Part shown: positions 48,169-62,680 of the stretch, one piece after another | Layout of the letters: each line of letters begins with the position of its first letter | Position numbering within the stretch: the first letter of the stretch is position 1 | Source of the DNA: an uncultured virus (IMG/VR IMGVR_UViG_3300046529_000479) | Lineage: Duplodnaviria; Heunggongvirae; Uroviricota; Caudoviricetes | Direction: 5' to 3' (one strand) | Length of the DNA stretch: 64,000 nucleotides | IMG/VR virus record: IMGVR_UViG_3300046529_000479 | The notes under the pieces: generated by a model | Database searches by the model: none | Told to the model about the DNA's origin: nothing | What the model saw: only the letters and a program-made list of their open reading frames with translations | Made by a program: the position numbers and the translations under genes

Positions 48169-48858
48169 CTACTGCTGGACGACGACCTCGATCGTGAAGT
48201 CGTTTTGGTGGCAAGTCGCTGGCGGCGACATCTTCATTGTACCGCTCGACTTGTTCACGCAGAACTTGACTTCGCCGTTGCCGAGATCCTTGTCATCCTT
48301 GTCCCCCGGGCCTGGCGGGCCTGTTGGGCCTCGTGGGCCTGTTGGCCCCTTGGGCCCTGTCGGGCCTTTCATGCCAGTCGGGCCTTTGGGCCCAGTAGCA
48401 CCCTTCGGGCCAGGAGCCCCTGTTGGGCCTTTTGGCCCCGGATCGCCCTTGTCACCCTTGAGGCCGGTTGGCCCCTTGGGGCCTGTTGCCCCCTTCGGGC
48501 CTGGAGCGCCAGTAGCACCCTTCGGCCCTGGTGGCCCAGTTGGGCCCTTGGGCCCAGTCGTACCCTTGGGGCCTTTCGGGCCAGTGGGGCCTGGCTTACC
48601 AGTTGGCCCTGTTGCTCCCTTGGGGCCAGTCGGGCCGGTGGGCCCTGTCTGGTTCCACGAGACTGGCGCCTCATAAAAGCGGCACAACTCGCCAACGTCG
48701 AAGTTGACCAGACGCAAGACGCCCTTGTCTGTCGTCTCGTTGTGCAGCGCGTAGCAGCCATGGAACACGCCGTTGCTGCTCGGGATACTGGCGTTGACTG
48801 TGGTCGCGATCCCGAATGTAGCACCGGCCACGGCTAAAGCCACAATTATCTTTCGCAT
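48169..48858 (-). CDS. secreted collagen-like protein
   Basis: signal peptide after AAAGGAGG; long uninterrupted Gly-X-Y run (GPT/GPK/GAT); Cys-containing flanking domains. Confidence 0.8.
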
Positions 48859-48875
48859 CCGTCCTCCTTTCATTG

Positions 48876-50969: not shown

Positions 50970-51500
50970 GTCTCCTTTCGTGTGTGGCGGGTTTGTGCGT
51001 GAGTATAGCTGGCTGGTGCAGCTCGCGCCCGGCCTCGCGCGCGTGCACGCGCCCGCGCACTAAAGACTTATATCCATGGTTGTGAATTGGGGTGCCTCGT
51101 ACGCGCGCGCGCGCAAAGAGCTTTTACTACTGAATAATGAGTTTTGAATGCAACGCGCGCCCCCGGCCCCGCGCGAGGCCCGGTGAAAAAACCTTCGCCT
51201 AGGCGCACGTACGCGCGTAAGCGAGAAAATCTGCATAGAGAGGTTTGGGTCGCGGGCGTACGGGTACGCGACTGCATGTGTTTTTCAGTTTTCTAAATAG
51301 GCTACTGCACGAAAAGCCTGCTAAAATGTGGTTTTTTGTCAATGTTGTGGTTTTTGCCTGGAATATTCTGTGTAATTTTGTGTAATTTTGTGGGGTGTTG
51401 GGTTTTTGTGTCAATTATGTTGTTTAGGGGTCAATTCTGGGTTTCAACGGTCAAGACCGCTTCCGTGCCGGGACTCCGGTTTCTACATTTTTCCCACGGT
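50970..51500. other. non-coding divergence region, candidate genome terminus/pac site or origin
   Basis: transcription switches direction; AT-rich, T/G-skewed 51270-51450; tandem TGTAATTTTG x2 (51371-51390). Confidence 0.45.
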
Positions 51501-51944
51501 GATCGGCGGGTCGGCGAGTCGAGAGCTCGCGCCTCGATTACCCCGATTAGCAGGGATTTTCCGCGCTTCCCCCGCTCCCGCCCGCCCCGAGGCGTAGCCC
51601 GTCTAGGCGACGTTTACCGTTTAGGCTACGGATCTCGGTTCGGAGTTAGGCGATCCCCTCCCCGCCCCCGCGCGTACCGTTCTTCGAGCCGGAGACGGGC
51701 GCCGACGTTATCCCTCGATCGTTCGAGGCGAGAGGCGGGCGGTATTAGTCGGAGGAGCCGCGCGATCGCTACGCGCGGGCTTCGCGGGGGCGGTCTACGG
51801 CTTCCCTCGCCTCGCCCGCCTTATAGCCGCCCGGGGGACTCGATCGGACGCGCGTAGGGTCGCCGTCCCCCGTAGGTAGGGGCGGCTCCCGGGCTTTAGA
51901 GCGTAGGCGCGCGAGCCGTAGACCTTCCTTCCTTCGGCGGGCGG

Positions 51945-52068
51945 TCGGAGCCTCTTAGAGAGGCTCCGAGCGTCCCGCGAGAGGCGCGCAGGGATCGACG
52001 GGGGTCGAGAGATTCGAGGCGTTCGATTCTCTCGACCCCGCTCGATCGCGCGCGCCTCGCGCGGGACG
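51945..52068 (+). ncRNA. structured leader: 25-nt hairpin followed by ~98-nt hairpin
   Basis: TCGGAGCCTCT/AGAGGCTCCGA; CGTCCCGCG/CGCGGGACG, GAGGCGCGC/GCGCGCCTC, GATCGA/TCGATC, GGGGTCGAGAGA/TCTCTCGACCCC. Confidence 0.5.
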
Positions 52069-52106
52069 GGGAATCCTCCCCGCCCCGACGAACGAAGGAG
52101 AGAAAA

Positions 52107-52514
52107 GTGTCCGTATCTAAGAAAGACGCCGCGAAAATCTCGAAGCTCGCGGCCGAAGGTAAGTCCGACGCCGCGATCGACGCGGCCGTCTATCCCGGGG
52201 AGACGGGAAAGTGGAGTACGCGGGAGATCTCCTACGCGGCGCGGCGCGACGCCTACGCGGCTTCGCTCTCGCCGAACGGCCCGAAGTACGACGGGCCGAT
52301 CGTCCCTTCGCGCCTCGGCGCGTTCGAGACGATCGAGAGCGTTCGAGCGTCCGACGTCGCGGCGGTACTCGCCGAGTCGCCGAAGCTACGCGCCTACGCG
52401 CTTCCGATCGTCTTCGGCTTCCGCCCGACTCGGGCGAACGTCGATAGGCTCGGCGGCTTCGCGGTCGCGCGGAAACGCCCCGGGCGGCTCGCCTCGGGCG
52501 CCTCGCGCGCCTAG
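52107..52514 (+). CDS. first early protein, unknown function
   Basis: ACGAAGGAG SD, GTG start; no His/Gln/Cys/internal Met. Confidence 0.7.
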   Translation: MSVSKKDAAKISKLAAEGKSDAAIDAAVYPGETGKWSTREISYAARRDAYAASLSPNGPKYDGPIVPSRLGAFETIESVRASDVAAVLAESPKLRAYALPIVFGFRPTRANVDRLGGFAVARKRPGRLASGASRA

Positions 52515-52719
52515 CAGGGATCGAGCGGGGGAAGGGGAGAGGCTCGCGCCTCGCCCCTTCGCCCCGGTCGCGTCCCGCGACCGAACGCGGAAGGAAGGAC
52601 GCAAAGCCTCGCGATCGCGAAGCCGCGCGTCCGGTTTCCGCACGCCCTCGATTCGGAAGGGTAAGCGCAAAAGAGGAAGCTACAAAAAGTTTCCTCAAAA
52701 ACGAAGGAGGGTCACGAAA

Positions 52720-53058
52720 GTGGCAAAACGGAAAAAGCCGGCAAAAAGCAGAGGGCCGGTATCATCGAAGTCCGCAAGAAGTCCGGGACAAAGCCGCGAC
52801 TCAAAGATAAGCGCGGCAACCGGAACGCCCGCAATCGACCTCGAACTAGCAAGGGCCGAAGCGTGCGACGCATTCGTCGGGAACACAAACGTAGTGTTCT
52901 TCAAGAAGAAGCGCACTAAGCGTACAAAGCTCGGGCCTGCCGGATCATGGTACAATGGCCGAGCTGAGAGCGGCGAAAAGTGCGGAGCACTCGCGATAAT
53001 GTCCAGATACAAAGACGGTAAGCGAGTTCACCGCTGCGCGAATCACATCGCGTCGTAA
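52720..53058 (+). CDS. basic early protein with Cys/His cluster
   Basis: ACGAAGGAGGGTCA SD; K/R-rich; C...C...HRC..H. Confidence 0.65.
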   Translation: MAKRKKPAKSRGPVSSKSARSPGQSRDSKISAATGTPAIDLELARAEACDAFVGNTNVVFFKKKRTKRTKLGPAGSWYNGRAESGEKCGALAIMSRYKDGKRVHRCANHIAS

Positions 53059-53071
53059 CGACAAAGACGCG

Positions 53072-53113
53072 CGTTGAAGGTCGAGCGACGGACAACCCGC
53101 TCGGCCTTGAACG
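53072..53113 (+). repeat. G.G hairpin element 1 (GGACAAC loop)
   Basis: CGTT-G-AAGGTCGAGCG acggacaacc CGCTCGGCCTT-G-AACG. Confidence 0.8.
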
Positions 53114-53137
53114 ACAAACGAAGGAGGGTACAAACAG

Positions 53138-53299
53138 ATGACATACGCGATCCAGTCGTCAGGCAGCGGGCAGCCGCCCGTAATGACGAACATCATCGCT
53201 GAGTTCGCGACGGAAGCAGAAGCCGTCACGACACTCGCTCGACTATTCAAGTCGAGTCCAGTTCGCAAGAACTACCTCAGCATCGTGAAAGTCAAGTAG
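53138..53299 (+). CDS. 53-aa hypothetical protein (not in ORF track)
   Basis: SD GAAGGAGGG; MTYAIQSSG...SIVKVK. Confidence 0.6.
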   Translation: MTYAIQSSGSGQPPVMTNIIAEFATEAEAVTTLARLFKSSPVRKNYLSIVKVK

Positions 53300-53343
53300 C
53301 GAGCTGAAGATCGGGCAAGGACAACTGCCCGGTCTTGAGCACG
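53300..53343 (+). repeat. G.G hairpin element 2 (GGACAAC loop)
   Basis: GCT-G-AAGATCGGGCA aggacaac TGCCCGGTCTT-G-AGC. Confidence 0.8.
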
Positions 53344-53369
53344 ATACCGATACACGAAAGGAGGGTACA

Positions 53370-53468
53370 GTGTACAAATGGAAAGACGCTTGGCCGACAT
53401 ACATCACTGCTCTGCCAATCGTCGTAATCGCATGTGCGCTCATTGGGCGCGCGATCTCACATCTGTAG
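53370..53468 (+). CDS. 32-aa membrane peptide (not in ORF track)
   Basis: SD AAAGGAGGG; MYKWKDAWPTYITALPIVVIACALIGRAISHL. Confidence 0.55.
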   Translation: MYKWKDAWPTYITALPIVVIACALIGRAISHL

Positions 53469-53511
53469 CAGAAGCTGCGTCGTGGACAACCGACGCGGCT
53501 TGTACTACAGA
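53462..53511 (+). repeat. G.G hairpin element 3 (GGACAAC loop)
   Basis: TCTGTAGCA-G-AAGCTGCGTCG tggacaac CGACGCGGCTT-G-TACTACAGA. Confidence 0.85.
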
Positions 53512-53530
53512 CAACAAACGAAGGAGGGTC

Positions 53531-53860
53531 ATGAAGCCAGAGTTCATAGAGAAAGTCTGGACAGCAACTGACCGCGAAGTCAAAGCTGACTGGATCGCCA
53601 ATCAGTATGAAGGCGAATATGTCAGCCCTCACTGGACAGTGGCTGGCGTCCAAGGTGATCAGATCATCTTCTACTGTTACGCAGAGCAACTCGGATATGA
53701 AATCTGTGTCTGGATCAGTGATTTCGATCCTAGCAACCGCTATGGCGGCGGCGAAGGGCTTGAAAGCAGACCGACATTGCGAGGAATCGTAATGTGTATT
53801 GAAGGCGAATGCGGCTGGATCAGCATCAAGGATCACAGTATCGTCAACAACTGCAACTGA
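53531..53860 (+). CDS. hypothetical protein
   Basis: ATG directly after ACGAAGGAGGGTC. Confidence 0.65.
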   Translation: MKPEFIEKVWTATDREVKADWIANQYEGEYVSPHWTVAGVQGDQIIFYCYAEQLGYEICVWISDFDPSNRYGGGEGLESRPTLRGIVMCIEGECGWISIKDHSIVNNCN

Positions 53861-53902
53861 TAGAAGCTGCTACTCAGGACAACGAGTAGCGGCTTGTGTC
53901 AG
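53857..53902 (+). repeat. G.G hairpin element 4 (GGACAAC loop)
   Basis: CTGATA-G-AAGCTGCTACTC aggacaac GAGTAGCGGCTT-G-TGTCAG. Confidence 0.85.
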
Positions 53903-53948
53903 AAGACATGACACAGTACCACAAAATGAAAAATCGAAGGAGGGTCAA

Positions 53949-54272
53949 ATGAAAGGCGCATTCATCACCATACTGCTACTCGGCAGTCTCTTTGTCGGGG
54001 GCGGAGCATTCGCACTTCACGGGATCACCGCCGCGAGCGACAAGTCAAGTGCTCAGGTCGATCCCAACACTTTCGCAGTCCTGCCAATCGGCGTCAGCGA
54101 AAGCTACGTGAGAAGTTCATTCGGAACTCCTCAGAGCAGCGACGACACAACTGTCGGCGGCTACGGCAGCACGTTGAACAGCCGTTGTATCTACTACGGC
54201 ATCCTCAGCCAGAACGGCAGTTATCAGTTCTGCTTCGACAACGGCAAGCTCGTCTCGAAAAGCAGGTATTGA
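53949..54272 (+). CDS. exported SmpA/BamE-like small domain protein
   Basis: N-terminal TM/signal; IG.S...V...FG.P...Y.....F.F.NGKL..K. Confidence 0.55.
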   Translation: MKGAFITILLLGSLFVGGGAFALHGITAASDKSSAQVDPNTFAVLPIGVSESYVRSSFGTPQSSDDTTVGGYGSTLNSRCIYYGILSQNGSYQFCFDNGKLVSKSRY

Positions 54273-54318
54273 GTAGCAGCTCTGTCAGATAGAATCCGAC
54301 AGGGCTGGTGTTCAATAC
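54266..54318 (+). repeat. G.G hairpin element 5
   Basis: GTATTGAGTA-G-CAGCTCTGTC...GACAGGGCTG-G-TGTTCAATAC. Confidence 0.85.
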
Positions 54319-54339
54319 AAACGAAGGAGGGTCAGCACG

Positions 54340-54627
54340 ATGGAAGCCAAGAAAGGCGAAGTCTGCGTGGTGTCCAGCATTCCTAATTGTGATTTCTGCA
54401 ATCAGGAGGGCACGAAGACGCCAGGCCCGTACGACTTCAAGACGCGGTTTGGCCCGTGGGCTCACGGATGTGAGGATCACTGGAAGCTGTACCGTGCGTT
54501 CGACAGCCTCGGTGTTGGGCAGGCTCAGATCTGGATCACGAAAGATGAGGAGCCGAAGCACGCGCCAGGTACACTAGGCGCGATCATGTCCAGCAAGACG
54601 AACAGGTTGAACAAAGAACTGGGGTAG
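54340..54627 (+). CDS. hypothetical zinc-binding protein
   Basis: CDFC...YD.KT..GPWA..C..H...LG.G. Confidence 0.6.
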   Translation: MEAKKGEVCVVSSIPNCDFCNQEGTKTPGPYDFKTRFGPWAHGCEDHWKLYRAFDSLGVGQAQIWITKDEEPKHAPGTLGAIMSSKTNRLNKELG

Positions 54628-54685
54628 TGACCAGTGGCTCCGTCATGGAGATCAGGGACGTTCGACATGGCGGGGCCGGTGTTCA
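54628..54685 (+). repeat. G.G hairpin element 6
   Basis: TGACCA-G-TGGCTCCGTCATG...CATGGCGGGGCCG-G-TGTTCA. Confidence 0.85.
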
Positions 54686-54705
54686 TCACCAACAGAAGGA
54701 GGGTC

Positions 54706-55059
54706 ATGAACGAGGAGCAAGCAGATTTCCTTGTGAAGTTCCGCAAGGAGAATCCGCCACAACCAGTACCAGGACGAGAAATGACTGAGGAGCAGTTTCG
54801 TGCTGATCTCAATGGCGTAGCAGAACGAACAGCCAAAGACATCGGTGGCGACTATCCTCACATCGACACAGGCTTCGAGTGCTACGTGTACAAGATTGAC
54901 GGCAGATTCGTCGGCTACATCTACATGGGTGAAGCTGGCGAGTGGGCCCTCATCGACAAGTTCGATCAGTTCGACACCTGTGACGAACCGGACACACAGC
55001 TTCACGACGCACCCGAGTATCTCCAACGCGTCAAAGCGCTGTCGCCATACAAACGGTGA
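54706..55059 (+). CDS. hypothetical protein
   Basis: ATG after AGAAGGAGGGTC. Confidence 0.65.
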   Translation: MNEEQADFLVKFRKENPPQPVPGREMTEEQFRADLNGVAERTAKDIGGDYPHIDTGFECYVYKIDGRFVGYIYMGEAGEWALIDKFDQFDTCDEPDTQLHDAPEYLQRVKALSPYKR

Positions 55060-55102
55060 CCAGCGGCGGGCCGGGAGTTGTCCCCCGGCCTGTCGGTGTT
55101 CA
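55057..55102 (+). repeat. G.G hairpin element 7 (loop GTTGTCC)
   Basis: TGACCA-G-CGGCGGGCCGGG agttgtcc CCCGGCCTGTCG-G-TGTTCA. Confidence 0.85.
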
Positions 55103-55120
55103 TCAAACGAAGGAGGGAAC

Positions 55121-55489
55121 ATGGCAATTGTAAGCTGTTTCGACTGCCCACAGTCCATGATGACGACAGGTGTCGCAGGCGACGATGTCAGAACGTGGAT
55201 CTGCTCGGAGTGCGCTCACGAGCGCGGGCTCACGCCTAAGCTCGCAGAGCGTGTTGCGATCGAAGACGCCAAGTGGGGCAACCCATGCTGCATCTGGGAA
55301 GCATGTCCCAAGGACGTCATGAAGCAGATCCTGATTCCGATCACAGACAACATCGAGATCGAGGCAGAGAACGCCGGCATCGAAGAAGACAATCCCAACC
55401 GCGACTCATGGATGGCACACAAGATCTCTCATCGACTCGTCGGCGTCATGAACCACATCTGGTTCGGCCCGGAGGTATTGCTCCGATGA
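55121..55489 (+). CDS. hypothetical protein with zinc ribbon
   Basis: SD ACGAAGGAGGG; CFDC...CSEC. Confidence 0.6.
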   Translation: MAIVSCFDCPQSMMTTGVAGDDVRTWICSECAHERGLTPKLAERVAIEDAKWGNPCCIWEACPKDVMKQILIPITDNIEIEAENAGIEEDNPNRDSWMAHKISHRLVGVMNHIWFGPEVLLR

Positions 55490-55728
55490 CAGTAGGCAAG
55501 TTCGAGATCAGAACGTGGTACGACGGCAGAACCCACAACCAGTTCCGCAAAGTAGCGGAAGTCGAAGCACCGACCGCACTTCATGCCCTGCGTGCTTACG
55601 CGGGGAACAGGCAAGCGATCATTCGACAGCGCAAAACGGACTACAGTGACGCCAAAGACTGGACAGCCACGATCCTAAACAAGAACGGAAAGCTGCGCGA
55701 CTACATCGCTGTTCGGGTACGCAACTGA
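55486..55728 (+). CDS. hypothetical protein
   Basis: ATGA-coupled (MTVGKFEIR...). Confidence 0.55.
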   Translation: MTVGKFEIRTWYDGRTHNQFRKVAEVEAPTALHALRAYAGNRQAIIRQRKTDYSDAKDWTATILNKNGKLRDYIAVRVRN

Positions 55729-55769
55729 TCAGCCGCTGGCACATCGCAGAGTGTGTTGGCGGGTGCTCA
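55726..55769 (+). repeat. G.G hairpin element 8
   Basis: TGATCA-G-CCGCTGGCACA...TGTTGGCGG-G-TGCTCA. Confidence 0.85.
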
Positions 55770-55828
55770 TCCGAGCATCATCCGAAGGAGGGTCAAATGA
55801 TACGACTGGGGAACAGAACCGATCGAAG

Positions 55829-56053
55829 GTGAGTGTCGTGAAGTTCATCTTCATCGACATTCCCGGCTCGATTCTCATACTGTGTTTCATTCTCGGCTGG
55901 TGGTCGAGACATAACAAGGTAGTCAAGACCGTGTTCTTTGACGGGAACGAACCAGTGAAGTCGAAGCCGATTACGCCCAAGCGGATTCCAGTTCCCAAGG
56001 CTTCAAAGCCGAAGCTGTACATCGTTCGAGATCAACCAGGTAGTGAAGAGTGA
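55829..56053 (+). CDS. small membrane protein, preceded by an 11-codon mini-ORF (55797-55832)
   Basis: hydrophobic N-terminus; GTGA overlap with the mini-ORF stop. Confidence 0.5.
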   Translation: MSVVKFIFIDIPGSILILCFILGWWSRHNKVVKTVFFDGNEPVKSKPITPKRIPVPKASKPKLYIVRDQPGSEE

Positions 56054-56098
56054 ATAGCGGCTCCACAGGTCAGCTACGATCTGTGGGGCCGGTGTTCA
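56051..56098 (+). repeat. G.G hairpin element 9
   Basis: TGAATA-G-CGGCTCCACAGGTC agctac GATCTGTGGGGCCG-G-TGTTCA. Confidence 0.85.
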
Positions 56099-56126
56099 TA
56101 AGACGCCACGAAGGAGGGCCAGCAAA

Positions 56127-56510
56127 ATGCCACTCAACATCTATGTGGAGCGAAAAGGCAAGCGTCGCAAGGATCTCATCTGGGATCAGCAGATGCTTGA
56201 CTTCTGCTACACCGTGGCCTACATGGACGAAGATGCTGACCGGGAATATCAGACTGGCAAGAAGTTCGCTGACCTCGGCACCTGGACATTCGATCCAGAC
56301 AACAAGCTCGGATCGAAGTGGTCAGGGCAAGAGTTCGAGCACTATGTCACTTTCCAATTCGGTGTGTACTACATCGAGGGTGATTGTGGCCTGGTGGAGA
56401 AGGGCGAGCAAGTTGTTAAGCACAAGCATCGCTTCCTTCATTCACAGATGGAAAAGCCAGTCGTGTTCATGCCCGGAGACAGAATCGTCGCATGGAGGTC
56501 ACACAAGTGA
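56127..56510 (+). CDS. hypothetical protein
   Basis: SD ACGAAGGAGGG. Confidence 0.6.
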   Translation: MPLNIYVERKGKRRKDLIWDQQMLDFCYTVAYMDEDADREYQTGKKFADLGTWTFDPDNKLGSKWSGQEFEHYVTFQFGVYYIEGDCGLVEKGEQVVKHKHRFLHSQMEKPVVFMPGDRIVAWRSHK

Positions 56511-56728
56511 TCAAGGTCAAGATGACGCAAGAGGCATTCAACACCATGACGACTGCACAGAAGCACAGCATTGATGTTATCCTGAACAATCCGAAACTTG
56601 AAAACGTGGTTGTTCAGAAAGGCGGACTCGATCTGCCAGACAACTATCTGTGCTTCACGATGCACTGGACGGATCATGGCCAGCCGATTTATGGCGGCAT
56701 CTCGCCCCAAGGCCAGGTGTCGACATGA
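56507..56728 (+). CDS. hypothetical protein
   Basis: GTGA-coupled, GGAGG SD. Confidence 0.55.
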   Translation: MIKVKMTQEAFNTMTTAQKHSIDVILNNPKLENVVVQKGGLDLPDNYLCFTMHWTDHGQPIYGGISPQGQVST

Positions 56729-56961
56729 TCACGTTGGAGCAAGCAAAAAGCCTGAAGCGTGGCCAGATCCTTCACCACGACATCAACAGGAACAGCGATG
56801 GCACTTGCCAACGCTGGAAGGTGAATGGTCAAGTGCAGACATGGAAGCGTGAGCCCAACCGGGTTCGCGTGCCCATTAAACACGGGCTGAGGCACTACGA
56901 TGCTCTTGATAGCCAAGGTGATCTCGATCTCGTTCATCTCGAAAGCGAGTGCCCGGGATGA
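56725..56961 (+). CDS. hypothetical protein (MITLEQAK...WKVNG.V.TWK..P..V.VP.KHGL)
   Basis: ATGA-coupled. Confidence 0.55.
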   Translation: MITLEQAKSLKRGQILHHDINRNSDGTCQRWKVNGQVQTWKREPNRVRVPIKHGLRHYDALDSQGDLDLVHLESECPG

Positions 56962-57101
56962 GACTCGTTGGCTACTGCACCGTTTGCCACAAGATCAAGT
57001 ACGTCCAAGTCACCGGCCACGACCTGGCCATGGCTCAGGCTCGTGGTAGCAACGTCGTGTCTGGAATCTGCGACGACTGCGAGAAAGAGCAAAGGAAGTG
57101 A
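56958..57101 (+). CDS. 47-aa zinc-ribbon protein (not in ORF track)
   Basis: MRLVGYCTVCHK...GICDDCEK; ATGA-coupled; its stop begins element 10. Confidence 0.55.
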   Translation: MRLVGYCTVCHKIKYVQVTGHDLAMAQARGSNVVSGICDDCEKEQRK

Positions 57102-57147
57102 GTAGCGAGTCTGTCCGTCCGATGGATCGGATAGGCTCGGTGCTCAC
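57098..57147 (+). repeat. G.G hairpin element 10
   Basis: GTGAGTA-G-CGAGTCTGTCCG...CGGATAGGCTCG-G-TGCTCAC. Confidence 0.85.
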
Positions 57148-57179
57148 CAGGCACCAGTAACAACAACCGAAGGAGGGTT

Positions 57180-57869
57180 ATGCCACCATTGATCGAGACG
57201 TCACCGGGCGTGCTGGAGTTCGCACTCGATCGTGTGGGTGATGACGCAGTTGAGATCCTGGAGCTGTCGTACAACGACATCCCCTGGAGCTGGATCTGCG
57301 GCACGCTCACGCGAGCCTGTGTGCTCAACGGGCATAAGAAGCCCGAGGGCTGCGCTCTCGGCCTGATCGGCATGAACGGCGGTCTGGCTAGCTTCTCTAC
57401 CAGAGTAGTGAGGCTGTGGGACAACGAGATCGGCAAGGACGTGCCGACTGGACAGTACGAAGTCCAGGGCATCTTCGAGCAGAGCGATCTGTACGCGACT
57501 TCAACGACAGCAGAGGCGATCGTATGCCTCGCGCTGGCGATCCCGAAAGAGATCACCGTCAGTAAGGCTGGCTGGTACAACGAAGTCGATGAGGCGTACG
57601 ACAAGTGGGCGGATAACATCCCTCACGACGTTTCAGGAGCTGCCGACTGCGTTGTCGCCTACAACGACGACGACATCACGAGAGGCGATGCAGCGTCGTG
57701 GTTCTGCAACGCCATCGGCATCGCACGTCTGCGCCGATCCGCCGGCAAGCAGGCCTCGACGTGGATGCAGGACGAGGACGGCTGTGAAGATCCGTCTTGT
57801 CAGCAGTGCTACCCGACCAACAGCGACACCGAAGACGCTTTGGTCGAGATGTACGAGGGCGACGCCTGA
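57180..57869 (+). CDS. hypothetical protein, paralog of 60576-61088
   Basis: W.CG.L....NG.KKP.GCA.GL, LALAIP, YND.....A..WF. Confidence 0.65.
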   Translation: MPPLIETSPGVLEFALDRVGDDAVEILELSYNDIPWSWICGTLTRACVLNGHKKPEGCALGLIGMNGGLASFSTRVVRLWDNEIGKDVPTGQYEVQGIFEQSDLYATSTTAEAIVCLALAIPKEITVSKAGWYNEVDEAYDKWADNIPHDVSGAADCVVAYNDDDITRGDAASWFCNAIGIARLRRSAGKQASTWMQDEDGCEDPSCQQCYPTNSDTEDALVEMYEGDA

Positions 57870-57909
57870 CCAGCGAGTCCATCCCAACAAGGATGGGCTC
57901 GGTGTTCAG
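57866..57909 (+). repeat. G.G hairpin element 11
   Basis: CTGACCA-G-CGAGTCCATCC caacaa GGATGGGCTCG-G-TGTTCAG. Confidence 0.85.
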
Positions 57910-57932
57910 ACAGAACACCAGAAGGAGGGTCA

Positions 57933-58208
57933 ATGGACGAAGTCAGATCAGACAAGTTCACGGTCAACGACGATCTTGAGACGATCTCGTTTCACGACGA
58001 AGCGCAGCCGACGCTCATGCTGGCATGGATCAGCGACGATGCGAAGAGCGATCGCGGCTCGTTCTTCATCGCGGATTCAGAGAGCGAAAAGATCTTCAAG
58101 GTCACCCCGAGTCTTCACGACGATGGCATCAGAGTGATCCTGAAAGTCGATTCGCTCCACCGAGACGGCGTTGTGGAAGACAGCGCCATGATCATCAGCG
58201 TGTTCTGA
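57933..58208 (+). CDS. hypothetical acidic protein
   Basis: SD AGAAGGAGGGTCA. Confidence 0.6.
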   Translation: MDEVRSDKFTVNDDLETISFHDEAQPTLMLAWISDDAKSDRGSFFIADSESEKIFKVTPSLHDDGIRVILKVDSLHRDGVVEDSAMIISVF

Positions 58209-58411
58209 TGCCACAGATAGTTACTCTCCATCAGGACGAGTCAGAGATCATCGTTGCTGACACCAAGGGCAACCCGATGTTCAAGCTCAAGTTCGATAAC
58301 ACGGACGCGGGCTGCGAGCTGATGGTTGACATCTGGTACCCGAAGCTGCTCAGCCCCGACAAGTGGGTGGGCAACTTCGGAGACGAACCATTCATCTACG
58401 AGCCAACCTGA
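58208..58411 (+). CDS. hypothetical protein
   Basis: TGATG-coupled (MPQIVTLHQD...). Confidence 0.55.
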   Translation: MPQIVTLHQDESEIIVADTKGNPMFKLKFDNTDAGCELMVDIWYPKLLSPDKWVGNFGDEPFIYEPT

Positions 58412-58457
58412 TCAGCGAGTCTGTCCGTCCGACACGACGGGTAGGCTCGGTGCTCAG
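58408..58457 (+). repeat. G.G hairpin element 12
   Basis: CTGATCA-G-CGAGTCTGTCCGTC cgacac GACGGGTAGGCTCG-G-TGCTCAG. Confidence 0.85.
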
Positions 58458-58485
58458 CCGAGCATCAACCACGAAGGAGGGGAGT

Positions 58486-59016
58486 ATGGCAACGACAGCC
58501 TGGACAGAGGATCCAGCATCGGAGAGCCAGCTAGAGTTCATCCACGACCTCTCACAGAAACACGAGATGTCGGATGAGCAGGCTGAGTTCATTGCCCGAG
58601 TCCATCTCGGTGGACGGAAGCTCACCAAGGGTGAGGCCAGTCGAATCATCGACGGGCTAAAGGCATGTCCCAAGAAGCAGGTCAGTAGAGATTGGCCTGA
58701 TGTCCCGGCCGGCAGGTATGCCGTGGTCGATCCGATGGACGATGTCCTGAAGTTCTACCACGTAGACAAGCCGACTGAGGGCAAGTGGGCAGGCTACACC
58801 TTCCTGAACGTCCGTGCTTCGGATGAGCGTTATCCGATCAAAAACACGGAGCACAAGAAGTCCATCATGACCGAGATCTCCAAGAATCCGGCAGAAGCCA
58901 GCATGCGCTACGGGCGTGAGCTGGGCAAGTGCGGGATTTGCGGACGGACTCTCACCGATGAGCAGAGTCGAGCAAGAGGCATCGGCCCGATCTGCGCAGC
59001 GAAAGAGGGTTGGTGA
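58486..59016 (+). CDS. DUF6011-like zinc-finger protein
   Basis: CGICGRTLTD..S..RGIGP.C; N-terminal AS..Q..FI..L...LTK.EAS.II. Confidence 0.65.
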   Translation: MATTAWTEDPASESQLEFIHDLSQKHEMSDEQAEFIARVHLGGRKLTKGEASRIIDGLKACPKKQVSRDWPDVPAGRYAVVDPMDDVLKFYHVDKPTEGKWAGYTFLNVRASDERYPIKNTEHKKSIMTEISKNPAEASMRYGRELGKCGICGRTLTDEQSRARGIGPICAAKEGW

Positions 59017-59219
59017 TGGCGCAAGTGAACATCAGCGTGACTCGTGTCGGACACGTCGTGACGGTGAAGACCGCCAGCAACAAGGAGATCTTCAGCGTTG
59101 AGTACAAGAACCGAGGAGAGATCATCGATTACTGTCTCTGGCTCGCTCGTACTGGCAACGTCAACGCCGACCGCCAGACGATCGTGGATCTGCTGAAGGC
59201 CAACAAGGTGATCACATGA
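59016..59219 (+). CDS. hypothetical protein
   Basis: TGATG-coupled. Confidence 0.5.
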   Translation: MAQVNISVTRVGHVVTVKTASNKEIFSVEYKNRGEIIDYCLWLARTGNVNADRQTIVDLLKANKVIT

Positions 59220-59350
59220 ACGAGTTTCGCTGGTATCTGCGGCGACTCTCGCTCGATGAGATCCTCGGCCTAGTCAGAACAGGGAACGTGCCCAAAACGT
59301 TCATGCCTGCGATCCTCTCTGAGTTGAAGAGAAGGAAGTACGCATCATGA
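59216..59350 (+). CDS. 44-aa hypothetical protein (not in ORF track)
   Basis: ATGA-coupled at both ends; MNEFRWYLRRLSLDE... Confidence 0.5.
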   Translation: MNEFRWYLRRLSLDEILGLVRTGNVPKTFMPAILSELKRRKYAS

Positions 59351-59544
59351 GCTACACGTTCACTCACTGGAGCGATCGCTTCGGCGATCAAGTCAGCAAG
59401 ATGCGCGAGGCTGAAACGGGTGAAATCTACCTGACCATGCGCGACGAGTGCGACGAAGATCTGTTGCACGACTGGTACATGGTGGGGATGAAGCCAAAGG
59501 AAGCAGCCAAGCGGTTCATGGCCGGGGAAGCGCGTGCGAAATGA
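59347..59544 (+). CDS. hypothetical protein
   Basis: ATGA-coupled. Confidence 0.5.
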   Translation: MSYTFTHWSDRFGDQVSKMREAETGEIYLTMRDECDEDLLHDWYMVGMKPKEAAKRFMAGEARAK

Positions 59545-59620
59545 GACACGTGTATCTTCTGCTGTTCGAGATCCTCGTTCTGCTTCATCATGTCAAGGAC
59601 GCGATCGAGCTGGTGACGCC

Positions 59621-59845
59621 ATGAGTACACCAAGGCCGATTCCAGTTCCTCATTCCAGCAATGTCAAGTCGATCTCTTGGGACAGTGACAAGAGCATCAT
59701 GTACGTCACGTACAAGAGCGACAAGACGTACGCCTACACAGGCGTGCCATACCAACGTGCCGTTGTGGCTGCTAACGCTCGAAGCGTCGGCAGCTATATC
59801 AACAAGCACATCAAGCCGCACTACCCCGTACAGCAGGTCGGGTAG
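59621..59845 (+). CDS. KTSC-domain protein
   Basis: SSNVKSI.WD.....YVTYKS..TYAY.GVP......A.SVGSY.N.HIK..Y. Confidence 0.8.
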   Translation: MSTPRPIPVPHSSNVKSISWDSDKSIMYVTYKSDKTYAYTGVPYQRAVVAANARSVGSYINKHIKPHYPVQQVG

Positions 59846-59894
59846 TTGCAGCTCCCGGTGTCTCTGCGGTCACCGGGGGCTGGAGTCACCCGAC
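59837..59894 (+). repeat. G.G hairpin element 13
   Basis: GTCGGGTAGTT-G-CAGCTCCCGGTG...CACCGGGGGCTG-G-AGTCACCCGAC. Confidence 0.85.
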
Positions 59895-59925
59895 TCCGAG
59901 TACAGCGAAGGAGGGTCATGCTGAA

Positions 59926-60174
59926 GTGACGAATCCGCCGAAGCTCCTCAAGATCAAAGTCGTTCCGTATGATGAGGCTGATGTCACAGCTGCGATCCAG
60001 CTTCCGGTGTTACCAGAAATGATGGATTGGGAGCACGACCTCATCTTCAAGATCGACAACCGTGTGATCTTCGGCTTATTCATCCATCGCCACGAGAGCG
60101 GTGACATCGGAGTCGAATTGTTCGACCCGGATAGCACCGAGCCCGTGGCGACTCACCAGTTCACGGAGGCATAA
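59926..60174 (+). CDS. hypothetical protein, preceded by a 3-codon mini-ORF (59918-59929)
   Basis: ATG CTG AAG TGA overlaps the GTG start. Confidence 0.55.
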   Translation: MTNPPKLLKIKVVPYDEADVTAAIQLPVLPEMMDWEHDLIFKIDNRVIFGLFIHRHESGDIGVELFDPDSTEPVATHQFTEA

Positions 60175-60434
60175 TGGTCGTACAGCAGGAACAGGAGAAC
60201 GTCGTCTTGTACAACATCGAGGCGATCGTGGTCGAGGAAGCAGGCGACAACGCCATCTATTCGATCGCCAAAATGAGACCTACAACCGGCACTGACCGAT
60301 TCAAGCCCGTCGAGTTCTTCAACGACGAGCATGAGAATCGTTGGGTGAAGTTCTGGCCCAAGAACGGCCCTGCAAAGGGCAAGCAGGCCAGCATCCCGAT
60401 CGAACGCCTGGTCATGGTGGTGCACAGCAAGTGA
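60174..60434 (+). CDS. hypothetical protein
   Basis: TAATG-coupled, GGAGG SD. Confidence 0.55.
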   Translation: MVVQQEQENVVLYNIEAIVVEEAGDNAIYSIAKMRPTTGTDRFKPVEFFNDEHENRWVKFWPKNGPAKGKQASIPIERLVMVVHSK

Positions 60435-60507
60435 CACAACCGCCAATCTTCCTATCGCCGCGTTGGTTCCGCATAATGTGGCTAATTATTCGGGAGCGTT
60501 GGCGAAA

Positions 60508-60549
60508 GTGATCAGCGGGTCTGTCCTTCGGGGCAGGCCCGGTGCTCAT
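60508..60549 (+). repeat. G.G hairpin element 14 (cUUCGg loop)
   Basis: GTGATCA-G-CGGGTCTGTCC ttcg GGGCAGGCCCG-G-TGCTCAT. Confidence 0.85.
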
Positions 60550-60575
60550 GAGAGTACCGTAACGAAGGAGGGTCA

Positions 60576-61088
60576 ATGCCGAGAATGACAGCCAAGGTCG
60601 TCCTGGAGGAGTCCATCCTGGACATCAGGGCCGGACACTGGCTCTGTGGCGAGCTGATGCAGGAAGCAGAAGCCAACGGAAACAAGAAGCCAGATGGTTG
60701 TGCCGTCGGCCTCGCGGTCATCAACTCGAAGCTCGCGCGTGTCGTCATCGCGAAGTCTGACGACTACGATTCGGGTTTGATGGCATACTGCCCGTCGATC
60801 AACAACCCGTCGGTCTACTTCAGAGGCGACCAGAACTACCCCAAGGCCAGATTGAAGGCACTGGAGAAGTCGCTGCTTGCACTCGCGTTGGCGATCCCTG
60901 TCGATGCTCGACCCGTGACGACAGAATACAGAGGCGACGAGTACGAAGACCAACATATCAGCAACGATGACATCAAGGGCTACAGCATCGAGCAGCTGGA
61001 GTCGCTCATCATCGAGTACAACGACTCCAGCCTCGACACGGGCACGGCGATGAACTGGTTCAAGGCAGCGTACAGCAGCCTCAAGTGA
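60576..61088 (+). CDS. hypothetical protein, paralog of 57180-57869
   Basis: shared motifs NG.KKP.GCA.GL, LALAIP, YND, WF. Confidence 0.65.
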   Translation: MPRMTAKVVLEESILDIRAGHWLCGELMQEAEANGNKKPDGCAVGLAVINSKLARVVIAKSDDYDSGLMAYCPSINNPSVYFRGDQNYPKARLKALEKSLLALALAIPVDARPVTTEYRGDEYEDQHISNDDIKGYSIEQLESLIIEYNDSSLDTGTAMNWFKAAYSSLK

Positions 61089-61126
61089 GCTGCGAGTCTA
61101 CCCACTAGGGTAGGCTCGGAGTTCAT
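61085..61126 (+). repeat. G.G hairpin element 15
   Basis: GTGAGCT-G-CGAGTCTACCC acta GGGTAGGCTCG-G-AGTTCAT. Confidence 0.85.
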
Positions 61127-61148
61127 CAGAACTCCAGAAGGAGGGTCA

Positions 61149-61481
61149 ATGCTCAAGGAAGAAGCTGGCTGGGTTCAGTCATTCGAGTTTCCAGGGCTCA
61201 AGGTCGTGCAGATGAAGCTATGTGAGGCCTGCAAGATCAAGTTCGATACTCACAACCAGGCCTGCATCCATGTCGCCAAGGAACACCCGAAGCTGCTCCA
61301 GATCGACAACGGCGATCTCACGGTTGTCCGTCTCGCACAAGAGCCGTACAACCAGCGCGAGCGAACGCTCACGACTCGCCAGTACCTGCTCTACAAGGGC
61401 GAGCCGGTCGTGGCAGCAGGCTACCAGGTCGAGAGCTTCGCTGAAGGCGCAGCATGGGCGCTCAAGGAGTTGTCGAGATAA
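61149..61481 (+). CDS. hypothetical protein
   Basis: SD AGAAGGAGGGTCA; CEAC...H..C.H. Confidence 0.6.
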   Translation: MLKEEAGWVQSFEFPGLKVVQMKLCEACKIKFDTHNQACIHVAKEHPKLLQIDNGDLTVVRLAQEPYNQRERTLTTRQYLLYKGEPVVAAGYQVESFAEGAAWALKELSR

Positions 61482-61532
61482 CCATGCCGGTCGAAACCCC
61501 TGGTAATCAAAGGGTTTCGGCCGGGATGGTTG
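61479..61532 (+). repeat. G.G hairpin element 16
   Basis: TAACCAT-G-CCGGTCGAAACCC...GGGTTTCGGCCGG-G-ATGGTTG. Confidence 0.8.
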
Positions 61533-61603
61533 GCTAGCCATCCCGCCACTTGTATAGTATCATACTAAGTGGCTGAAATCCACCACTACCGAAGGAGGGA
61601 TCC

Positions 61604-62119
61604 ATGGCCAGGATCGCAGCAGAGCTGGAGCCAGCTCTGGTCACGAAAGCGGTGAAGATCGTCAAGCCGCTGAGAGACGCCAAGGACAGCGCCAAGTTCG
61701 ACGCGCTGCAGTCGGCTCTCAAGGTCGCGAGGCCGATGGCGGCCCGGTATCTCTACGTTGCCGAGGCGGTGATCGACCCAGCTCTGAAGTTCAAGCTCAC
61801 AGCCGCTAACATCAACAAGGCTCGTGATCGTGGACTGCGCTGGGAGCGCATCGCGGCCTACACCGGCTCCACAGTGCCGGAAGTTCAGGCAATGTTCGTG
61901 GAGAACGGTGGGGACATGTCCAAGTCCTACACGGGCAGGGGCAAGCGTCCCGACGGCGTGCCGGCCGACGGCAAGCCTGCCAGGAAGCCGACTGCCAAGG
62001 AGACCAAGGCAGCGGCCGCAGCGGCGAAGCGTGGCCCCGGTCGTCCCAAGGGCAGCAAGAATCGGCCCAAGCCGGATGTCAAGGTGCGTCGGAGGTCGTC
62101 TCTCCCAACGCGCCCTTAG
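61604..62119 (+). CDS. basic DNA-binding protein with HTH-like segment and AT-hook
   Basis: GLRWERIAAYTG.TV.EV; KRGPGRPKGS. Confidence 0.55.
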   Translation: MARIAAELEPALVTKAVKIVKPLRDAKDSAKFDALQSALKVARPMAARYLYVAEAVIDPALKFKLTAANINKARDRGLRWERIAAYTGSTVPEVQAMFVENGGDMSKSYTGRGKRPDGVPADGKPARKPTAKETKAAAAAAKRGPGRPKGSKNRPKPDVKVRRRSSLPTRP

Positions 62120-62151
62120 TTCACATCGACATCGATGATGAGCTGAAGGCG

Positions 62152-62523
62152 TTGCTAGAAGGCAGGAGCGTGCGTACTCGGAGCGAACTCATGAACATTG
62201 ATGAAGAAACTTCCATCACGTTCAATAACGAAGTGTTCTGCGCCAAGTACATACGCTTCCTGCCTGCTGGCCAGACGTCATCAGGCTTCCGAAAGCAGCC
62301 ACTCGTCCAGTTTTACTCTGACCGAATGGTGGATCGAGGACGTGAGATCCACACGAACATGCGAACGGTTGGGCTGGAGGATGTGGTCGGGATCAAAGGA
62401 CTTACTGACGCTCAGATAAAAGCGATCGTTCAGGACGTTCGGAACAACAGACTGCCCGAGCAACCACGCTCTGGCGTCAAAGTTGTATCCAAGACCCGGC
62501 GACGGAGCCAAATCAGGAAGTGA
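62152..62523 (+). CDS. hypothetical protein
   Basis: ORF in operon orientation; start uncertain. Confidence 0.45.
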   Translation: MLEGRSVRTRSELMNIDEETSITFNNEVFCAKYIRFLPAGQTSSGFRKQPLVQFYSDRMVDRGREIHTNMRTVGLEDVVGIKGLTDAQIKAIVQDVRNNRLPEQPRSGVKVVSKTRRRSQIRK

Positions 62524-62555
62524 GCAGTGGGCGGGCTTCGGCCCGCCCTATGCTC

Positions 62556-62655
62556 CTGCTGCACGAGGCGGGAGGGGATGGGCAATACGGCCGTAACGGG
62601 CACTGCCTGAGGACACTCTAGGTGAACCCGTGTCCCACCCCGCCTCGTGGAGCAG
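62556..62655 (+). repeat. G.G hairpin element 17 with large structured insert
   Basis: CTGCT-G-CACGAGGCGGG ...~65 nt... CCCGCCTCGTG-G-AGCAG. Confidence 0.65.
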
Positions 62656-62680
62656 AAGCTCCAATGAGAAGGAGGGTCAG

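Follow-up and report, generated by a model that had tools for sequence, protein, structure and literature searches.

The early polycistronic mRNA of phage T7 carries RNase III sites (R0.3, R0.5, R1, R1.1 and R1.3), and these are the closest functional model for the element examined here, a family of 17 hairpins that stand between the early genes of an uncultured tailed phage (IMG/VR record IMGVR_UViG_3300046529_000479) and that all hold a G.G mismatch between a lower and an upper stem. The stretch of DNA that was analysed, called the window in the following, is 64 kb long and is a near-complete genome of this phage, which has a contractile tail; the block of genes that contains the hairpins is termed early from its position and content. 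Other hairpins are also known past stop codons in operons, namely those of the REP type, other intercistronic stabilisers and the CUUCGG hairpins of phage T4, and these can protect the upstream RNA from 3' exonucleases; none of them is known to have a position-fixed G.G mismatch and wobble or a stem of fixed length. Among published genomic features, the start-associated sequences and their extended form (SAS/ESAS) come closest; these repeats were described in Cluster K mycobacteriophages (PMC3203893) and Cluster EF Microbacterium phages (PMC7302621). The 13-bp SAS consensus reads GGGATAGGAGCCC in Cluster K (PMC3203893) and GGGAAAGGACCCC in Cluster EF (PMC7302621), and the ESAS are upstream 17-bp inverted repeats whose arms are conserved in sequence and whose departures, according to the authors, do not support pairing as RNA (PMC3203893).

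Similar to the T7 signals, the hairpins of the window lie between the cistrons of an early operon, are built in two storeys of about two helical turns with an irregularity between the stems, usually have 11 bp or more from the irregularity to the loop, carry a conserved U.G wobble and would be expected to leave the upstream message with a 3' hairpin that protects it. They differ from the T7 signals in having a 1x1 G.G in place of an asymmetric internal loop, in holding the stop codon in the lower stem at a fixed register, in number (17 copies in 10 kb, against five in T7) and in departing from the box rules of the Escherichia coli enzyme; furthermore, they have no sequence relation to the T7 sites. 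With the hairpins of REP type and of T4 they share their stability and their place after the stop codon, and one element and one neighbouring hairpin have cUUCGg loops, but no RAYT-type transposase is present. Integron attC sites are likewise imperfect hairpins just past the stop codon of a cassette, conserved in structure rather than sequence, strand-specific and flanked by exchangeable genes; however, no integron integrase or recombinase was found among the 77 open reading frames (ORFs) scanned in the window, the G.G mismatch is symmetric (as judged by eye) where attC sites, which also have R/L core sites, carry extrahelical bases, and the fixed spacing to the ribosome-binding site and the excess of wobble pairs point to RNA.

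The likeness to the SAS/ESAS repeats is that some of the non-structural genes share an over-conserved motif where the ribosome binds, all in a single orientation and numbering about 10-19 copies. Ahead of this motif stands an inverted repeat whose spacer varies, in gaps that are larger than usual, and the arrangement is kept across subclusters next to unrelated genes. The motif GAAGGAGGGTCA, described below, is over-conserved and of one orientation in this same manner. In contrast to the ESAS, the arms of the present hairpins differ between copies and covary. The Cluster K consensus GGGATAGGAGCCC had two matches with at most 2 mismatches in the window (1.67 expected), none of them near an early-region start codon. 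Searches of the literature, which did not extend to subscription journals, returned no description of a G.G-marked family of intergenic hairpins in phages; the first-pass annotation of this DNA had likewise recognised no described motif.

Layout, covariation and strand of the hairpins

All 17 hairpins named in the first-pass annotation were located on the + strand between 53.07 and 62.65 kb (Table 1), and its counts were reproduced: the G.G mismatch is present in 17/17, and the fifth pair above it (+5) is U.G in 15/17, G.U in element 7 and A-U in element 17. Minimum free energy (MFE) folds recover the hairpins at -23.6 to -37.0 kcal/mol (-64.9 for element 17). A scan of the window with a strict motif (a G, 4 pairs, T.G and at least 5 further pairs) gave 18 matches on the + strand, 15 of which are elements and 3 of which are strays; the - strand had 2. 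A cruder test, based on MFE folds upstream of ribosome-binding sites, found 1x1 G.G loops at 12/20, 11/16, 10/23 and 44/69 early sites and at 24/98 and 37/113 control sites, such loops being common by chance in G-rich DNA. Because the enrichment amounts to about twofold only, a stricter, model-free census was used instead, in which any mismatch with 10 contiguous pairs above it and 2 below it was counted. The mismatch was G.G in 16 of the 17 mismatch-bearing hairpins of the early region on the + strand (10.1 kb), in 5/48 on the remaining + strand (52.6 kb) and in 2/41 on the whole - strand. A comparison with known RNA families had been proposed with the first-pass annotation, and Rfam 15 gave no match at the gathering score over the window; at E<=5 there were five weak matches, none scored on a hairpin, though one of the five (E 3.6; 15.4 bits, where the gathering score is 218) extends over the tract containing hairpin 17.

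A covariance model was built on 28 copies, 16 from the window and 12 from a related genome, L001, and over 454 kb of seven genomes it gave 64 matches at E<=0.01, all in early regions and on one strand per genome. The common layout is a lower stem of about 7 bp that includes the stop codon, the G.G mismatch, an upper stem of 11-12 bp and a variable loop. Of the 64 matches, 39 have an upper stem of 11 or 12 levels and 57 one of 10-14 levels; the lower stem has 6-9 levels in most copies (mode 7), and the loops measure 2-28 nt; together the two stems amount to about two helical turns. The stop codon, mostly UGA, pairs with the conserved UCA of a 3' flank that reads GGUGYUCA. It had been placed in or next to the basal 5' strand at the outset, and in the window it does lie 2-6 nt before the 5' G in 15/17 elements and exactly 3 nt before it in 10/17. 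When all genomes are considered, the distance from stop to G peaks at 3 nt (22/60 by automatic call, plus up to 7 ambiguous TGAGTAG cases), and in a minority of copies the stop codon is 6-18 nt off. Hairpin 1, with its stop codon 17 nt upstream, is atypical of the set, and in hairpin 6 the true stop is an upstream TAG and a TGA is still kept 3 nt before the 5' G.

Several pairs near the mismatch are constrained. Among 63 distinct copies, the pair directly below G.G is A-U or U-A in 62 and never G-C, the pair directly above it is C-G in 47, and the sixth pair (+6) is C-G in 51. The +5 pair has G on its 3' side in 62/63, as U.G (45), C-G (16), G.U (1) or another pair (1). The U.G wobble that the first-pass annotation reported for the window is thus not an invariant of the family, in which U.G gives way to C-G in 16 copies. 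The G.G mismatch holds clade-wide, whereas the U.G wobble is clade-specific and is held only by the window phage and its nearest relative, L171, a second genome that is 75-95% identical and is joined with the window's genome in one public record. The +5 pair is often C-G in L001 and G006, and G004 and G005 have U.U or a bulged U; common to the relatives is a pyrimidine, mostly U, on the 5' strand four to five steps above the mismatch. A second small hairpin that reuses the 3' basal strand is possible after about 8/17 window elements, as read from the folds, and many copies in relatives likewise allow it. In elements 8, 11 and 14 the MFE fold itself contains it, and at hairpin 8 the 3' basal strand can be used by an alternative downstream hairpin.

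The first-pass annotation had further stated that compensatory changes keep the pairing. In the alignment of the 16 window and 12 L001 copies, 87.4% of cells were paired, against 56.3% after shuffling and 31-43% with the partners slid, and changes on both sides occurred in 18/18 pairs; realigning 24 copies with MAFFT gave a poorer result than the first alignment, and it was left unused. The 64 model-aligned copies, an alignment fitted to the model, had 91.6% of 1131 cells paired, against 57.6% shuffled and 32-43% slid. The cleanest test of covariation is the comparison with L171. Its 11 syntenic hairpins offer 207 pair positions, of which 171 are unchanged, 27 carry double compensatory changes, 3 carry one-sided compatible changes and 6 are breaks, although some of the double changes may be replacements of whole stems rather than point changes. 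Element 7 is G.U in the window and U.G in its L171 homologue, so that the wobble was preserved through a double change. These data bear out the claim of compensation.

Pairs of the G.U/U.G kind outnumber A.C/C.A by 138 to 31, and the scores obtained with the covariance model collapse on the minus strand. Together these two results indicate that the folded molecule is the + strand, most simply mRNA, and that the structure is selected as RNA, as had been proposed for a signal acting on the + strand.

Distribution, ribosome-binding motif and gene exchange

Over the window, the covariance model found no element beyond the known hairpins, and it missed hairpin 17. With filters off, the count rose to about 25 copies in G006, 11 in G004 and 13 in G005, and G003, whose start is truncated, had 4 there. 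In the model-free census, the early regions of all seven genomes had G.G in 81/131 mismatch-bearing hairpins, against 18/214 in controls. Five more distant relatives (portal 38-49% identical, one of them complete) gave no convincing match and one weak one (E 0.0065), the five nearest cultured actinophages gave no convincing match, and 74 unrelated viral loci that share the ribosome-binding 14-mer gave 0 matches. The element is therefore restricted to the early regions of one phage clade. The public record that holds both L171 and L172 (G001, 129,757 bases) contains two phage genomes, related but not the same, that are joined head to tail; one equals that of the window at 99.99% identity, and the other is 75-95% identical and has different early cassettes. 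The record looks like an assembly or binning chimera rather than a 130-kb phage.

Downstream of the hairpins lies an over-conserved ribosome-binding motif, GAAGGAGGGTCA, with 13 copies of at most 1 mismatch (11 exact) at 52703..62679, all on the + strand, against 0.48 copies expected by chance. It follows the 3' G of the hairpin by about 24 nt (median), and by 14-38 nt in 52/58 copies, in accordance with the earlier remark that a Shine-Dalgarno sequence follows shortly after; hairpin and GAAGGAGGGTCA are one intergenic module. The sequence GAAGGAGGG occurs 18 times on the + strand, 17 times within 52703-62668. The ribosome-binding motif of more distant relatives reads AAGGAGGGTAC, and a scan of viral contigs with the pattern AAGGAGGGTACATG gave mostly single chance matches. 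At two places the ribosome-binding motif is followed by a very short ORF that either overlaps the real gene's GTG start or lies ahead of it: a mini-ORF of three codons (ATG CTG AAG TGA) at 59918-59929, with the real start at 59926, and one of 11 codons at 55797-55832, with the real start at 55838. These two mini-ORFs are possible leader peptides or reinitiation starts.

A comparison of the window with L171 revealed seven indels or replacements, of which three break at the module of hairpin and ribosome-binding site on both sides and three further ones abut the module on one side or span it (Table 1); in one replacement, overlapping genes take the place of a hairpin. L171 is without hairpin 2 and without its upstream gene. 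Conversely, an HNH-type homing-endonuclease-like gene lies between the KTSC gene and hairpin 13 of L171 (9487-9816, reverse strand) and is missing from the window; it is free-standing, joined by an ATGA overlap and without a hairpin link. The gene at 60576-61088 and hairpin 15 occur together at a different place in L001, and one L171 element is a chimera of the hairpin 12 stem and the hairpin 15 flank. L001 also holds two complete elements in tandem (5525-5558 and 5580-5623), 21 nt apart with no gene between them, which may be the remnant of a lost cassette. Exchanges between relatives thus break at the elements, as had been foreseen for gene gain and loss, though not all events conform to this, and a scan of the 77 ORFs against Pfam found no integrase, transposase, HUH enzyme or other recombinase. 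We read the exchange joints as a consequence of the shared intergenic modules and not as their purpose.

Possible functions of the module

Of the explanations considered, the likeliest is that the elements are RNase III processing and 3'-end protection signals of the T7 R1.1 type in the early mRNA, an interpretation by analogy in which our confidence is just short of even. In such a scheme, the elements would be transcribed as part of one long early transcript, in which every cistron, or block of overlapping cistrons, would close with a two-storey hairpin. A double-strand-specific endoribonuclease of the host (RNase III or an equivalent) would bind the two-turn helix, the irregularities of the helix would set the register, and a cut would fall close to the mismatch, probably on the 3' side alone. 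The protective 3' hairpin would remain with the upstream message, and the downstream message would begin about 20 nt ahead of a strong ribosome-binding site. The elements fill 17 gaps between cistrons, all on one strand, in which promoters would have no room, and they are absent where genes overlap; this intercistronic placement matches that of the early RNase III sites of phage T7. Moreover, no phage nuclease or recombinase gene was recognised in the early region, which fits an enzyme of the host. According to Pertzev and Nicholson (2006, PMC1540722), E. coli RNase III substrates usually comprise two turns of helix and have at least 11 bp between cut and loop, and internal loops or bulges confine cleavage to a single strand, leaving a 3' hairpin that protects the RNA. 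The same authors give UA/UG as the optimum of the distal box and A-U or U-A as the pair next to the scissile bond, and state that C-G or G-C at position 2 of the proximal box strongly inhibits binding (PMC1540722); U-G wobbles are enriched in the distal box in E. coli and Bacillus subtilis, according to a preprint (10.1101/2023.03.12.532304). The present elements have the two turns (a lower stem with a mode of 7 levels, the mismatch and an upper stem of 11-12 levels in 39/64 copies), and the upper stem of 10-14 levels in 57/64 copies would agree with the 11-bp minimum if the cut falls at the mismatch. The U.G at +5 and the A-U or U-A pair below the mismatch fit the E. coli box rules, and the irregularity that might limit cutting to one strand would be the 1x1 G.G.

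However, a number of observations weigh against processing by RNase III. The 1x1 G.G is smaller and more symmetric than the larger asymmetric internal loops of T7 sites, and what is known of RNase III gives no reason for the mismatch being G.G; a simple exonuclease barrier would need no conserved irregularities at all. The E. coli box rules did not hold in the registers tried, given the C-G directly above the mismatch in 47/63 copies and the G.G itself, although the enzyme of the host may differ. The nearest cultured phages infect actinobacteria at less than 42% protein identity, and the single cellular match of the portal is a 6.4-kb contig binned to a Chloroflexi metagenome-assembled genome, which is insufficient to name a host. 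Among the sequencing runs searched, no RNA run is on record as containing the phage. The G.G counts of the family are also partly circular, since the matching model expects G at both mismatch positions, and the model-free census is the fairer figure. The fit is thus architectural rather than sequence-exact and leaves the identity of the mismatch unexplained, and for this reason our confidence stays below even.

The constraints on an otherwise free helix, namely G.G, a pyrimidine-G pair at +5, C-G at +6 and A-U or U-A below the mismatch, can also be taken to suggest that a dedicated regulatory protein, of phage or host, binds the hairpin and acts on every early cistron. Such a protein would be a processive antiterminator loaded at numerous nut-like sites, or else it would activate or repress translation and so time the switch from early to middle genes. 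The groove would be shaped to take a basic peptide by the purine-purine mismatch together with the wobbling or bulged U, and the second irregularity alters its form (U.G, U.U or a bulged U) and yet stays four to five steps above G.G. The ribosome-binding motif is kept beyond what pairing with 16S rRNA needs, an argument that has also been made for SAS (PMC3203893). Three proteins follow the hairpins across genomes: a basic protein with three conserved cysteines and a histidine (52720-53058) was detected in 5/6 hairpin-bearing genomes, and a KTSC-domain protein (59621-59845) and a second basic protein (61604-62119) in 6/6, while the KTSC-domain protein is absent from the hairpin-free genome G009 and neither basic protein was detected there. 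Nevertheless, this co-occurrence is confounded by phylogeny, because the six genomes belong to one clade and one complete outgroup was compared. The protein of 52720-53058 was not detected in G004, has no Pfam family and has a best Foldseek E of 1.5 for a model of mean predicted local distance difference test score (pLDDT) 70; furthermore, no antitermination system is known to have 17 or more loading sites in one operon. A dedicated reader therefore appears unlikely. We regard as more doubtful still the fuller proposal that G.G and the U irregularity four to five steps above it are a private code read by a dedicated phage protein that controls all early cistrons, with the units of ribosome-binding site, gene, stop codon and hairpin being portable cassettes shuffled by the clade; the effect of such a code would be antitermination, translational timing or directed cleavage, and the candidate readers would be the protein of 52720-53058 or the KTSC-domain protein.

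The position of the stop codon raises another possibility. With a stop in the lower stem 3 nt before the mismatch, a terminating ribosome would open the lower stem only, and the freed 3' strand could then form the second small hairpin, so that the module would be a translation-linked device that insulates each cistron or couples it to upstream translation. The 3-nt peak of the stop-to-G distance, the UGA kept at this place in element 6 despite the upstream TAG stop and the second hairpins that are possible in the window and in relatives agree with this, and in element 15 the alternative fold frees the ribosome-binding site (probability of being unpaired 0.22 to 0.60). Sequestration of the ribosome-binding site was nonetheless rejected as a general mechanism: over the 17 modules the mean probability of GGAGG being unpaired is 0.48 free and 0.51 forced open, with changes both ways. 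The identity of G.G and the 11-12 bp of the upper stem are left unexplained, stops lie 6-18 nt away in the minority of copies mentioned above, and translation-linked action is improbable in our estimation. The stable, G+C-rich hairpins directly past stop codons might instead be non-canonical terminators or attenuators without a U-tract that grade transcription along the early operon, and terminators of this kind reportedly exist in the early region of actinophage phiC31. A check for ordinary terminators, which had been called for earlier, found no U-tract after any of the 17 elements and none of the elements among terminator-like sites (10 found, 10.2 expected), and mycobacterial RNA polymerase is reported to need a U-tract (PMC3993855). 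Seventeen strong stops in 10 kb without promoter room would silence the distal genes, and termination does not explain a conserved mismatch; we consider this quite improbable. Least credible, and very improbable, is a primary role at the DNA level, as recombination joints that make early genes exchangeable cassettes through an attC-type recombinase or shared linker homology. The breaks at modules in the L171 comparison, the relocated gene with hairpin 15, the gene-less tandem in L001 and the chimeric 12/15 element are what such joints would produce; of the recombination joint suggested in the first-pass annotation, the part that is supported is that gene swaps break at the elements. However, viable mosaic joints are expected in intergenic DNA anyway, one insertion is the HNH-type gene joined by its ATGA overlap, no recombinase is at hand, wobble pairs and strand bias favour RNA, and stems that differ between copies lower homologous recombination rather than promote it, which leaves the recombination part of that suggestion weak.

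If processing by an RNase III-like enzyme holds, the T7 way of punctuating an early message would not be peculiar to coliphages and would be widespread in soil phages with long operons of small accessory genes, here with a readable signature of 7 bp that include the stop codon, G.G and 11-12 bp with a U wobble. The more than 100 natural variants in seven genomes are a ready mutational series for defining what a host nuclease or phage protein recognises. As a natural intercistronic insulator, the module could serve operon design in high-G+C bacteria, and it may bear on the unexplained SAS/ESAS repeats of actinophages. Since the modules coincide with joints of gene exchange, they may also help to explain how early genes are shuffled without loss of expression.

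Coordinates and genomic setting

The positions of the hairpins and of the exchange events are collected in Table 1.

Table 1. Hairpins of the window, with the events of exchange seen between the window and L171.
Feature	Position	Strand	G.G mismatch	Pair at +5	Remarks
Hairpin 1	53069..53116	+	53076/53109	U.G	loop ACGGACAACC
Hairpin 2	53299..53344	+	53306/53337	U.G	
Hairpin 3	53464..53509	+	53471/53502	U.G	
Hairpin 4	53856..53903	+	53863/53896	U.G	second small hairpin after
Hairpin 5	54266..54318	+	54276/54308	U.G	10-bp basal stem with TGA
Hairpin 6	54627..54686	+	54634/54679	U.G	
Hairpin 7	55056..55103	+	55063/55096	G.U	
Hairpin 8	55725..55770	+	55732/55763	U.G	
Hairpin 9	56050..56099	+	56057/56092	U.G	
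Hairpin 10	57098..57147	+	57105/57140	U.G	L171 homology breaks within 5' arm
Hairpin 11	57866..57909	+	57873/57902	U.G	
Hairpin 12	58408..58457	+	58415/58450	U.G	L171 homology resumes within 3' arm
Hairpin 13	59841..59890	+	59848/59883	U.G	
Hairpin 14	60508..60549	+	60515/60542	U.G	cUUCGg loop
Hairpin 15	61085..61126	+	61092/61119	U.G	
Hairpin 16	61479..61532	+	61486/61525	U.G	
Hairpin 17	62554..62657	+	62561/62650	A-U	long branched apex
Two-sided break	53138-53299				gene, together with hairpin 2
Two-sided break	57113-58439				block; joints inside hairpins 10 and 12
Two-sided break					181-nt insert with element copy on each flank
One-sided or spanning event	55833-56043				replaced gene
One-sided or spanning event					HNH-type insertion adjoining hairpin 13
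One-sided or spanning event					hairpin 17 region swapped

In a Pfam scan, the - strand of the window codes for a Mu-type portal, a capsid protein, sheath, baseplate J and tape measure, and the + strand for a PD-(D/E)XK nuclease, a Toprim-MCM primase-helicase, a DnaE-type polymerase III alpha and ThyX. Amid the structural genes lies one for a protein with collagen triple-helix repeats (48169-48873, - strand). The block with the hairpin array (52.7-62.7 kb, + strand) holds about 30 small ORFs and runs from a non-coding, repeat-rich region to an SNF2 helicase gene; three Pfam families, DUF6011, KTSC and SNF2, are the only ones among its ORFs. No cultured phage matched the window by megablast, and the sole match of a distant DNA search against cultured phages was a stretch of 120-165 nt in the DUF6011 gene. 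DnaE and the portal are 37-42% identical at best to those of Arthrobacter, Microbacterium, Gordonia and Rhodococcus phages. The DNA of the phage is present in 24 DNA sequencing runs, from soil and rhizosphere metagenomes.

The array is headed by the 112-aa ORF at 52720-53058 (+), which only the ORF at 52107-52514 precedes. Its basic product has invariant C49, C88, C106 and H109, and the relatives found are close ones only. Upstream, the non-coding region 51000-52100 contains CGCG-rich palindromic runs and adjoins an A+T-rich patch of short repeats at 51240-51480 (GTGTAATTTT twice and several GTCAA motifs); this region could be the genome end, an origin or the early promoter region. Within the block, the genes at 57180-57869 (229 aa) and 60576-61088 (170 aa) are paralogues that both begin with MP and are each followed by a hairpin of their own, and relatives have one or the other at differing places. 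The basic protein of 61604-62119 has a basic C-terminal tail with an AT-hook-like GRPKG stretch, and no relatives of it were confirmed in viral contigs. Right after hairpin 16, a promoter-like TTGGCT-17-TATAGT lies within a small hairpin (61530-61563) and may launch a separate transcript for the gene of this basic protein; hairpins of the same layout stand at the matching place in L001 and L171.

The only terminator-like site of the + strand near an element is at 60457-60482, where a hairpin is followed by TAATTATT, and L001 has the start of this tract, GGTTCCGCAT, at the corresponding place. Another hairpin, G+C-rich and with a cUUCGg loop (62528-62547), lies between the stop codon of the ORF at 62152-62523 and hairpin 17, and in L171 the stretch that holds it is wholly replaced by a different hairpin.

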